Below are positions 47,054-49,010 of a DNA stretch of 64,000 nt, one piece after another. The DNA comes from Gemmatimonas sp. UBA7669 (GTDB taxonomy: Bacteria; Gemmatimonadota; Gemmatimonadetes; Gemmatimonadales; Gemmatimonadaceae), in contig NZ_DLHL01000001.1 in NCBI RefSeq assembly GCF_002483225.1, positions 63,325 to 127,324 of the forward strand, read 5' to 3'. The stretch's first letter is position 1; each line of letters begins with the position of its first letter. The notes beneath the pieces are model-generated. The model did not search any database and was not told the origin of the DNA. It saw nothing but the letters and a program-made list of their open reading frames with translations. The translations under genes were made by a program, and so were the position numbers.

Positions 47054-47854
47054 ATGCCTGTGCTGCGTCTGGCCCTTGCCACCCTGCCCTATCCGGATTC
47101 TCGGGACGACGCGCTGCGTCGCGCCACAGCCGCCATGGACGAGGCGGGAGCCGCCGGTGCGCAGCTGTTGGTGCTCCCCGAGTGTTATGTGCCCGGCTAC
47201 CGACGGCCGGGCCGACATGTGGCGCCCCCCGACGCCGCGTGGCTCGACGCGGCATGGCACTCGCTCGCCCGCCATGCGGCCGCGTCTCGCGTGGCGGTGG
47301 TGGTTTCCACAGAGCGCGTTTCACCCACCGGCCGTCCCATTCCGACGGCCGTGGTCATTGATGCCACCGGCCATGTGCTGGGCATGCAGGACAAGGTGCA
47401 GATCCCACCCGAAGAAGAAGACACGTATGTGGGAGGCGACGCACGGCGCGTCTTTGTGCTTGGCGACGTGACGCTGGGCGTCGTGATCTGCCACGAAGGC
47501 TGGCGCTACCCGGAGACCGTGCGCTGGGCCGCGCGCGCCGGGGCGCAATTGGTGGTGCATCCGCATTACAGCTGGGCAGAACCCGGAAGCCACATTCCGC
47601 GCGAGTTCGGCGAGCCGGCCAATTCGTTTCACGAGAAGGCCGCCCAATGCCGCGCCGCCGAGAACACGGTGTGGTTTGCCACCGTGAACTACGCGGAATC
47701 CAACGCGCCCACCACCTCGGCCATCATCGACCCCGAGGGCGTGGTGGTGGCATGGCAGCCCTACGGACAGGCAGGGCTGCTGCTGGGTGACCTTGATGTG
47801 GCGCGCGGCACGGGCTTTCTCGCCAAGCGATTGCGCGCGCTGCCCGACAATTGA
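47054..47854 (+). CDS. Carbon-nitrogen hydrolase (nitrilase superfamily)
   Basis: Catalytic triad contexts VLPEC, QDKVQ and VICHEG. Confidence 0.9.
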   Translation: MPVLRLALATLPYPDSRDDALRRATAAMDEAGAAGAQLLVLPECYVPGYRRPGRHVAPPDAAWLDAAWHSLARHAAASRVAVVVSTERVSPTGRPIPTAVVIDATGHVLGMQDKVQIPPEEEDTYVGGDARRVFVLGDVTLGVVICHEGWRYPETVRWAARAGAQLVVHPHYSWAEPGSHIPREFGEPANSFHEKAAQCRAAENTVWFATVNYAESNAPTTSAIIDPEGVVVAWQPYGQAGLLLGDLDVARGTGFLAKRLRALPDN

Positions 47855-47951: not shown

Positions 47952-48140
47952 GTCAACAGCTCACGCAGAGAACTGCCGGAGAACCGCAGAGAACGCAGAG
48001 CAACGGATCGCTACTGATGGATCCTCATATCTGATCCGTGTGGTTTCCGCCCAATCCGCGTCATCCGCGACAAGGCGGTTCAACCCCGACCGCAGTTCTC
48101 TGCGAACTCTGCGCCCTCTCCTTCACTGCGTGAGCTGCTG
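47952..48140. repeat. REP-like palindromic repeat cluster B
   Basis: GTCAACAGCTCACGCAGAGA matches 37661-37680 at 19/20; the right half is an inverted copy of cluster A. Confidence 0.85.
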
Positions 48141-48199: not shown

Positions 48200-48973
48200 T
48201 CAGGCCACGTGCTGCGCTTGCGCGACCGCGCGGGCCAGTCCGTCGGCCGTGATGCCACCGTGTGAAGCGTGCCACAGTACCTGTCCCCGCTGCACGACAA
48301 TGGCCTGCGGTGACTCGTGGCGAACGCGCAGCCGATCTTCGAGCGCGTCGGAGAGCGCGCGTTCGTGTTGCACCACCACCAGACGCGTGGGCACCTGCGG
48401 ATGCGCCTGCACAAAGGCGTCGTAGCGGCGCTTGACCGACTGCGAGACCCCACAGGTTGCCGAGTGCTTGAAGATCACCAGCGGCTGCTCGGCGGACACC
48501 AGCGCGTCGAGCTCGGGATCGTAACTGGCGTTGGAGGTTGCCGGCGCCGCGGCCACCGTGCGGGCAGCGTGCGCGGCAGGGTGCGCGGCAGCGTGAGCGG
48601 CAGCATGCGCTGTTCCGTCCCGCGTCCCGTCCAGTTCACCGCGCAGCACCGCGTCGAGCTGCGCAGCGTAGGTGCCGTAGGCCTGCGCGCCTGACTGCCG
48701 GGCCACCAGCACGCCGCGGTGAAATACGAGCACGGTGGGCAGCGCCCGCACGTCGTAACGCGTGACCGTCTCGAGATTCTGGTCCGCATCGAGGGTCAAC
48801 ACCCGCGCGCGCCCATGGTAGGTTTCAGCCAGACGCGCGAGCACCGGCTTCAGGGTGACGCAGGGGGCACACCAGGCGGCCCAGACATCCACGAGTACGG
48901 GCAGCGGCGACTCCAGCACGTCGGTGCTGAACCCGGCGTCCGTGACCTCGGCAAGGAACTCGACATCGCTCAT
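48200..48973 (-). CDS. Thioredoxin - BrxC(YtxJ/DUF2847) fusion protein
   Basis: N-terminal VWAAWCAPC...VRALPT thioredoxin; HAAAHAAAHPAAH linker; C-terminal VIFKHSATCGVS...VRHESPQAI...WHASH. Confidence 0.85.
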   Translation of the reverse strand: MSDVEFLAEVTDAGFSTDVLESPLPVLVDVWAAWCAPCVTLKPVLARLAETYHGRARVLTLDADQNLETVTRYDVRALPTVLVFHRGVLVARQSGAQAYGTYAAQLDAVLRGELDGTRDGTAHAAAHAAAHPAAHAARTVAAAPATSNASYDPELDALVSAEQPLVIFKHSATCGVSQSVKRRYDAFVQAHPQVPTRLVVVQHERALSDALEDRLRVRHESPQAIVVQRGQVLWHASHGGITADGLARAVAQAQHVA

Positions 48974-49010
48974 GACTGAGAAGATAACTGATCGGGCCAC
49001 CCTGGAAGCC

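Follow-up and report, generated by a model that had tools for sequence, protein, structure and literature searches.

A thioredoxin–bacilliredoxin (BrxC/YtxJ) fusion protein conserved within one genus-level clade of Gemmatimonadota

BrxC (YtxJ) of Bacillus subtilis is a monothiol bacilliredoxin that removes bacillithiol (BSH) from proteins via a BrxC-SSB intermediate (PMC8113031). Brx-SSB forms are generally resolved by BSH to give BSSB, which is then reduced by Bdr (PMC8301015). According to a passage of PMC8945050 that cites PMC8113031, BrxC-SSB is a poorer substrate for the Bdr of B. subtilis than BrxB-SSB is, which makes a dedicated recycler of BrxC plausible. A BrxC-type domain in another setting is found in AbxC (DR_1832), an atypical BrxC of Deinococcus radiodurans, in which the BrxC domain is N-terminal, the fusion partner is colicin-immunity-like and the active-site motif is TCHKT (PMC8301015).

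In a window of 64 000 nucleotides from Gemmatimonas sp. UBA7669 (the whole stretch of DNA that was analyzed), a single gene encodes a BrxC domain preceded by a thioredoxin (Trx) domain. With BrxC of B. subtilis and Staphylococcus aureus (PMC8113031; PDB entry 3IV4), the encoded protein shares matches to PF11009 and TIGR04019, a single cysteine in a T-C-x-x-S motif, an HESPQA block and co-occurrence with bshABC and bdr. It differs in that the BrxC domain sits behind a full Trx domain and a tether, giving a length of 257 residues compared with 108 for B. subtilis BrxC (PMC8945050). The active-site motif also differs (TCGVS here and TC[S/P/G/I]xS in the clade, compared with TCPIS), and the host is a Gram-negative member of the Gemmatimonadota. 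Like AbxC, which comes from a BSH-producing non-Firmicute, it is a lineage-specific BrxC-type fusion; identity with AbxC was rejected on the basis of an NF053651 score of 19.6 bits (cut-off 340), the TCGVS motif and the lack of a C-terminal extension.

Fusions of a Trx-fold module to a redox client, such as Neisseria PilB (Trx-MsrA/B), Prx-Grx hybrids and NTRC, usually mark a direct electron relay. In eukaryotic Grx3/PICOT the CGFS glutaredoxin domains bind Fe–S clusters with GSH, and the Trx domain is devoid of a CxxC dithiol. The Gemmatimonas protein has only the domain order in common with Grx3/PICOT (an N-terminal Trx fold followed by a monothiol redoxin): its redoxin is a BrxC domain with a TCGVS motif and no PF00462 match, and its Trx domain keeps CxPC. 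What it shares with the Trx-fold-client fusions, of which PilB is mentioned in PMC8945050, is the principle of attaching a reductant module to the very enzyme that this module recycles; it differs from them in that the client would be a bacilliredoxin. We found no description in the literature of a Trx–bacilliredoxin fusion or of bacilliredoxins in Gemmatimonas.

The fusion gene and its surroundings

The complete coding sequence occupies nucleotides 48200–48973 on the minus strand, a strand that the earlier note on this DNA had left unstated, and runs uninterrupted from an ATG at 48973 to a stop codon at 48200–48202, encoding 257 residues. That note had placed a thioredoxin and a BrxC domain in one frame and had quoted three motifs from them. 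Both domains of this single open reading frame score above their Pfam cut-offs, and WCAPC (residues 34–38), FKHSATCGVS (residues 168–177) and VRHESPQ (residues 217–223) were all located in that frame. It had also named an assembly artefact joining two genes as a possible undoing of the fusion. That explanation is excluded, and we assign practically no chance to an assembly or frameshift error of this kind or to a misassembled His repeat (described below). Five contigs, each assembled independently and derived from separate sequencing runs, encode the exact 257-residue protein; one such assembly (L113) carries a repeat array that agrees base for base with that of the window, and the fusion is also present in the complete, single-contig genomes G067, G136 and G257.

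The search for other proteins of the same architecture that had been proposed in the note returned about 105 homolog clusters (clustered at 90% identity) containing both Trx and BrxC, at 92% to 44% identity, and all of their named members are assigned to Gemmatimonas, Gemmatimonadaceae or Gemmatimonadota. These homologs carry the automatic NCBI annotation ‘bacillithiol system redox-active protein YtxJ’. One metagenomic protein of 286 residues (P0202) contains an N-terminal thioredoxin, an unrelated middle section and only the last ∼43 BrxC residues (VRHESPQAIV...), and has the look of a chimera, of a gene rearrangement or of an assembly error. The MAG JBBQXC01 (Gemmatimonadales) holds two differing copies of the fusion on contigs L029 and L034 (52% and 50% identity to the protein of the window), which may represent true paralogy or a bin in which strains are mixed.

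An M1-family peptidase gene lies downstream on the strand of the fusion gene in all 13 related loci, and in seven loci a gene for an RNase T-like exonuclease divergently abuts the fusion gene. A CN-hydrolase gene lies between the fusion and the M1 peptidase in this genome and in its closest relative (L112). In the window it spans 47054–47854 on the strand opposite to the fusion; it is missing from this position in 13 other Gemmatimonas-type loci, in which the peptidase comes immediately after the fusion, and looks like a recent insertion. No redox partner is found among these neighbors (M1 peptidase, RNase T-like exonuclease and CN hydrolase), and the gene context therefore adds nothing to the functional reading developed below, in which Trx recycles BrxC.

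In the segment 48971–49011, the ATG of the fusion (48973–48971, minus strand) overlaps a plus-strand ATG (48972–48974) within a CATG, and this head-to-head start arrangement with the exonuclease is repeated in seven related loci. The tblastn identity extends to residue 1–2 of the exonuclease; gene callers pick an internal ATG 37 bp away. Whichever ATG is used, there is almost no intergenic space for a promoter, suggesting that the promoters lie within the gene on the other strand or that the transcripts are leaderless. On the other side of the gene, the independent metagenome contigs L113 and L114, which both carry it, stop ∼143 bp beyond the stop codon (window positions 47952–48140), a pattern that fits a dispersed repeat at which assemblies break off.

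Domain structure and predicted electron path

By every sequence criterion tested, the C-terminal domain (residues 154–247, nucleotides 48233–48514, minus strand) belongs to the BrxC/YtxJ family. Residues 160–244 match PF11009 with 93 bits (Pfam cut-off 24.2) and the TIGR04019 (YtxJ) model of NCBIfam is matched with 94.3 bits (cut-off 77.25), which bears out the family assignment made in the note. Among solved structures, the nearest in sequence is PDB entry 3IV4 (E = 1.3e-13), a homolog deposited as a ‘putative oxidoreductase’, and the AF2 model of the domain has a thioredoxin-like fold with pLDDT values above 90. No glutaredoxin family, PF00462 included, is found among the Pfam and NCBIfam matches of the fusion protein at E ≤ 0.1. 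The monothiol active site, TCGVS with Cys174 (residues 173–177, nucleotides 48443–48457, minus strand), lies in a region where Lys169, His170, Ser171, Cys174 and Ser177 are invariant among 104 homologs. In the BrxC-domain alignment, His219, Pro222 and Gln223 of the HESPQA block and His238 are likewise invariant, and Glu220, Ser221, Ala224, Ser237, Ile241 and Thr242 are shared by at least 90% of the sequences. The fusion gene contains the only PF11009 match in its own genome, and with 257 residues and an N-terminal Trx domain its product departs from the stand-alone form of ∼110 residues that characterizes BrxC/YtxJ.

The N-terminal Trx domain (residues 8–110, nucleotides 48644–48952, minus strand) matches PF00085 over residues 8–99 with 82.5 bits (Pfam cut-off 23.5). 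The AF2 model of this domain, also with pLDDT values above 90, aligns with E. coli TrxA structures in Foldseek with an r.m.s.d. of 1.1–1.2 Å and a TM score of 0.92, and Foldseek matches to the AF2 model were to single Trx domains only. The dithiol active site is WCAPC (Cys35 and Cys38; residues 34–38, nucleotides 48860–48874, minus strand), in which Trp34, Cys35, Pro37 and Cys38 are invariant among the 104 homologs. Trp31, Asp29 and Pro79 are invariant in alignments of both 20 and 104 sequences, and Arg76, Gly95 and Ala96 are invariant or nearly so in the same alignments. Asp29 is the buried aspartate and Pro79 the cis-proline of the thioredoxin fold; Arg76, Pro79, Gly95 and Ala96 occupy what we take to be the TrxR-contact positions of E. 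coli TrxA. With TIGR01068, the fusion Trx domain scores 79–81 bits against an equivalog cut-off of 96.8, which two other thioredoxin genes of the same genome exceed. Judged by these profiles and motifs, it is a paralog that has diverged while keeping a complete catalytic site, and not the housekeeping TrxA equivalog.

The best tblastn matches of the Trx domain outside the clade are picocyanobacterial thioredoxins (Synechococcus/Cyanobium contigs L035–L039), with 51–53% identity over residues 9–108 in a scan that was biased by pre-selection with the pattern VDVWAxWC. The stand-alone Trx paralogs in genomes of the genus Gemmatimonas are ∼36–43% identical to the fusion Trx among the matches listed. 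The possibility that the Trx module came from a foreign source merits a proper tree.

Cys35, Cys38 and Cys174 are kept in all 104 homologs, 92 of which contain exactly three cysteines. Because an intact dithiol Trx is conservedly tethered to the sole BrxC of the genome, with exactly three cysteines between them, the simplest reading is one of intramolecular recycling, in which the CxPC pair of Trx would regenerate the single BrxC cysteine and TrxB with NADPH would recharge Trx. We give this arrangement slightly better than an even chance of being correct, and recycling of BrxC by Trx, which the note had put forward, is the most plausible reading that we infer for the conserved three-cysteine fusion. 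Cys174 of the BrxC domain would attack S-bacillithiolated proteins, giving BrxC-S-SB or another oxidized form. Cys35 of the tethered Trx would then attack the BrxC-S-SB disulfide and Cys38 would resolve the interdomain disulfide, leaving BrxC reduced and Trx oxidized, and TrxB and NADPH would re-reduce the Trx domain. De-bacillithiolation would in this way be wired to Trx/TrxB instead of, or alongside, BSH/Bdr.

Electrons could also flow in the reverse direction, with the BrxC domain and BSH (itself reduced by Bdr) reducing the Trx domain, which would make the latter a BSH-dependent thioredoxin comparable to the glutaredoxin-reduced poplar Trx h4 or to the situation of the Grx domain in thioredoxin-glutathione reductase. 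The residue between Cys35 and Pro37 fits such a role: it is Ala, Thr, Gln or Arg in 104 of 104 homologs and never the canonical Gly, so that the active site is WC[A/T/Q/R]PC and in no case WCGPC. The TIGR01068 score (81 compared with 96.8 bits) belongs to a diverged paralog that may have lost its specificity for TrxB, and genes for Bdr and BSH synthesis are present in the genome. Reverse flow is nevertheless unlikely in our estimation, given that the presumed TrxR-contact residues Arg76, Pro79, Gly95 and Ala96 are conserved, that TrxB is present and that the genome already contains two canonical thioredoxins.

The two domains are joined by an Ala/Pro-rich flexible linker (residues 111–153, nucleotides 48515–48643, minus strand), which ranges from 23 to 55 residues across homologs, is unconserved in sequence and contains 29% Ala and 15% Pro (20- and 104-sequence alignments). 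The AF2 model has a mean pLDDT of 88 and a pTM of 0.71, with pLDDT values below 50 at residues 127–143. The linker is thus predicted to be a disordered tether, and the pTM value hints at a preferred arrangement of the domains.

Alternatively, the two domains might function independently, the fusion serving only to co-express or co-localize a bacilliredoxin with an extra thioredoxin; BrxC could then act, for instance, as a thiol switch or BSH-dependent peroxidase in the manner of AbxC. We regard this as improbable, since both active sites are strictly kept and exactly three cysteines are found in 92 of 104 homologs at ∼50% divergence; moreover, a Trx-fold module fused to a redox client usually signifies a direct electron relay, as outlined above. 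More in keeping with independent domains are the length, disorder and lack of conservation of the linker, which place no constraint on geometry, and the precedent of AbxC, evidence that domains of the BrxC type can be joined to unrelated partners (PMC8301015).

Within the linker, the HAAAHAAAHPAAHAA stretch is the product of a 12-bp tandem repeat, CGCGGCAGCGTG, with 5.2 copies at nucleotides 48548–48610 (minus strand; TRF), which encodes HAAA repeats and includes a 36-bp in-frame expansion. A relative with 92% identity (P0003/L112, 245 residues) shows a clean 36-bp gap at this place, corresponding to three 12-bp units fewer than in the window, and the His repeat is therefore not a conserved feature of the family. 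Across 103 homologous linkers the number of His residues has a median of zero, and a conserved metal-binding linker was rejected on these two grounds. The repeat is therefore a recent strain-specific expansion of microsatellite type within the tether and serves no conserved role. The earlier note had described a His-repeat linker; its account of HAAAHAAAHPAAHAA as encoded by a 12-bp repeat stands, whereas the repeat does not define the family, the 36-bp expansion being private to the strain.

Distribution and origin of the fusion

Among 301 genomes sampled from the phylum, full-length matches to the fusion are confined to the window's own GTDB genus (ten of its 14 genomes, including this one), with none found outside that genus; named records identify the genus of the carriers as Gemmatimonas. 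The BrxC domain itself is present in 70 of the 301 genomes and absent from the other 231. The statement in the note that BrxC normally stands alone agrees with the norm of ∼110–160 residues elsewhere in the phylum, where nine of ten stand-alone loci examined are open reading frames of 111–159 residues. At the tenth (L105:3036–4328; genome G283, same family) the open reading frame is 430 residues long, with BrxC at residues 324–421 and no Pfam match in the ∼320 residues before it. Two readings fit this locus: a frame that is too long because the DNA is GC-rich, or a BrxC fusion of another kind.

No Trx gene lies within 4 kb of the stand-alone BrxC at any of these ten loci, and none of the window's neighbors is shared with them; there is thus no support for an origin of the fusion from trx and brxC genes that once lay side by side. 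In G103, a genome of the same genus, the only BrxC stands alone; it is 37% identical to the BrxC domain of the fusion and groups with other stand-alone sequences in the tree. In this BrxC-domain tree, the stand-alone sequences from Gemmatimonadota and Acidobacteriota cluster apart from the fusions (support 87/84), the S. aureus sequence forming a long branch that makes the rooting unsure. The tree would allow the fusions to have arisen once, although it does not prove this.

A profile search against 1.84 billion cluster representatives yielded, among the best 150, three 50%-identity clusters that span both domains (P0051, P0086 and P0102), the other members being multi-thioredoxin proteins. 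Among 185 579 species genomes scanned, 13 full-length loci were found, labeled as Gemmatimonas, Gemmatimonadaceae, Gemmatimonadales or Gemmatimonadetes/Gemmatimonadota, and a word search with the C-terminal domain, an insensitive method, found no other architecture. Fusions outside the clade were not seen in the best 150 representatives (a set crowded by multi-Trx proteins), in the genome scan or in the word search; these searches are not exhaustive, and distant independent Trx–BrxC fusions elsewhere are possible. The fusion is real, conserved and restricted to one genus-level clade, and its component domains are known ones.

Bacillithiol gene set and implications

The genome of the window, which is 99.9% complete, encodes BshA (TIGR03999, 527.8 bits), BshB1 (TIGR04001, 226 bits), Bdr/YpdA (TIGR04018, 375.5 bits), a BrxA/B-type bacilliredoxin (PF06491, 207.6 bits) and TrxB (TIGR01292, 368.6 bits), all above their cut-offs, as well as BshC (TIGR03998), which with 249.4 bits falls just below its cut-off of 265.8. 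The genome check for bshA, bshB, bshC and bdr suggested in the note therefore recovered each of these genes. Neither the glutathione synthetase GshB (TIGR01380) nor a class II monothiol CGFS glutaredoxin (TIGR00365) was found in this genome. Across the phylum, bshC is present in 288 of the 301 genomes; it occurs in 69 of the 70 BrxC-positive genomes, which is a weak test of co-occurrence for a gene that is nearly universal. Since the bsh, bdr and brxA/B genes are present, GshB and the CGFS glutaredoxin were not found and bshC is so widespread, the principal low-molecular-weight thiol of this organism is very probably BSH or one of its derivatives.

Bacillithiol-like chemistry in a Gram-negative lineage, at which the note had hinted, is well supported by this gene set. 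The point is not new, because BSH synthesis in Gemmatimonadetes was predicted by comparative genomics by Hiras et al. (2018; PMC6282198), and bshB1 has been noted in the transcriptome of Gemmatimonas phototrophica (PMC11406998); we found no report in the literature of measured BSH in any Gemmatimonas. The BshC match in this genome (G000:C57:26701–28053; L001) begins at profile position 58. The BshC proteins of the listed members of the genus and family also score below the cut-off (∼249 compared with 265.8 bits), whereas those of more distant families of the phylum reach 340–460 bits. These scores point to a BshC that has diverged in this lineage, with that of the present genome appearing N-terminally different as well.

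FeS cluster biogenesis is listed among the roles of BSH (PMC8113031). The parallel in domain order with Grx3/PICOT, taken together with the failure to find TIGR00365 and GshB in a 99.9%-complete genome, would accommodate an Fe–S protein in which the BrxC domain ligates a [2Fe–2S] cluster with BSH as co-ligand and replaces the missing CGFS glutaredoxin. We consider such a function very unlikely. The Trx domain has the full CxPC that PICOT Trx domains lack, 231 of the 301 phylum genomes are without BrxC even though nearly all have bshC, and we found no report of Fe–S binding by BrxC.

Intramolecular recycling of BrxC by Trx, the reading that we prefer, has to be weighed against two features of these genomes. 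Bdr and BrxA/B are kept, so a canonical recycling route exists, and the absence of BrxC from 231 of the 301 genomes indicates that its function is dispensable. A more far-reaching version, in which the fusion is a self-contained de-bacillithiolase driven by TrxB and NADPH that circumvents Bdr and whose product is free BSH, not BSSB, is put forward tentatively, as something that we would expect to prove wrong somewhat more often than right.

The reach of the finding is limited by its restriction to one genus-level clade, by domains that are already known and by a gene that is already annotated automatically as YtxJ. Within these bounds, it bears on the regeneration of oxidized BrxC: the fusion predicts a direct electron path from Trx to BrxC and offers a single polypeptide in which this relay is testable. 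It also provides a compact candidate enzyme for bacillithiol redox biology outside the Firmicutes, in a phylum where the use of BSH is predicted from genomes only. If the fusion does act as a self-contained de-bacillithiolase, it would be a ‘Rosetta stone’ that identifies thioredoxin as a physiological reductant of BrxC-type bacilliredoxins generally.
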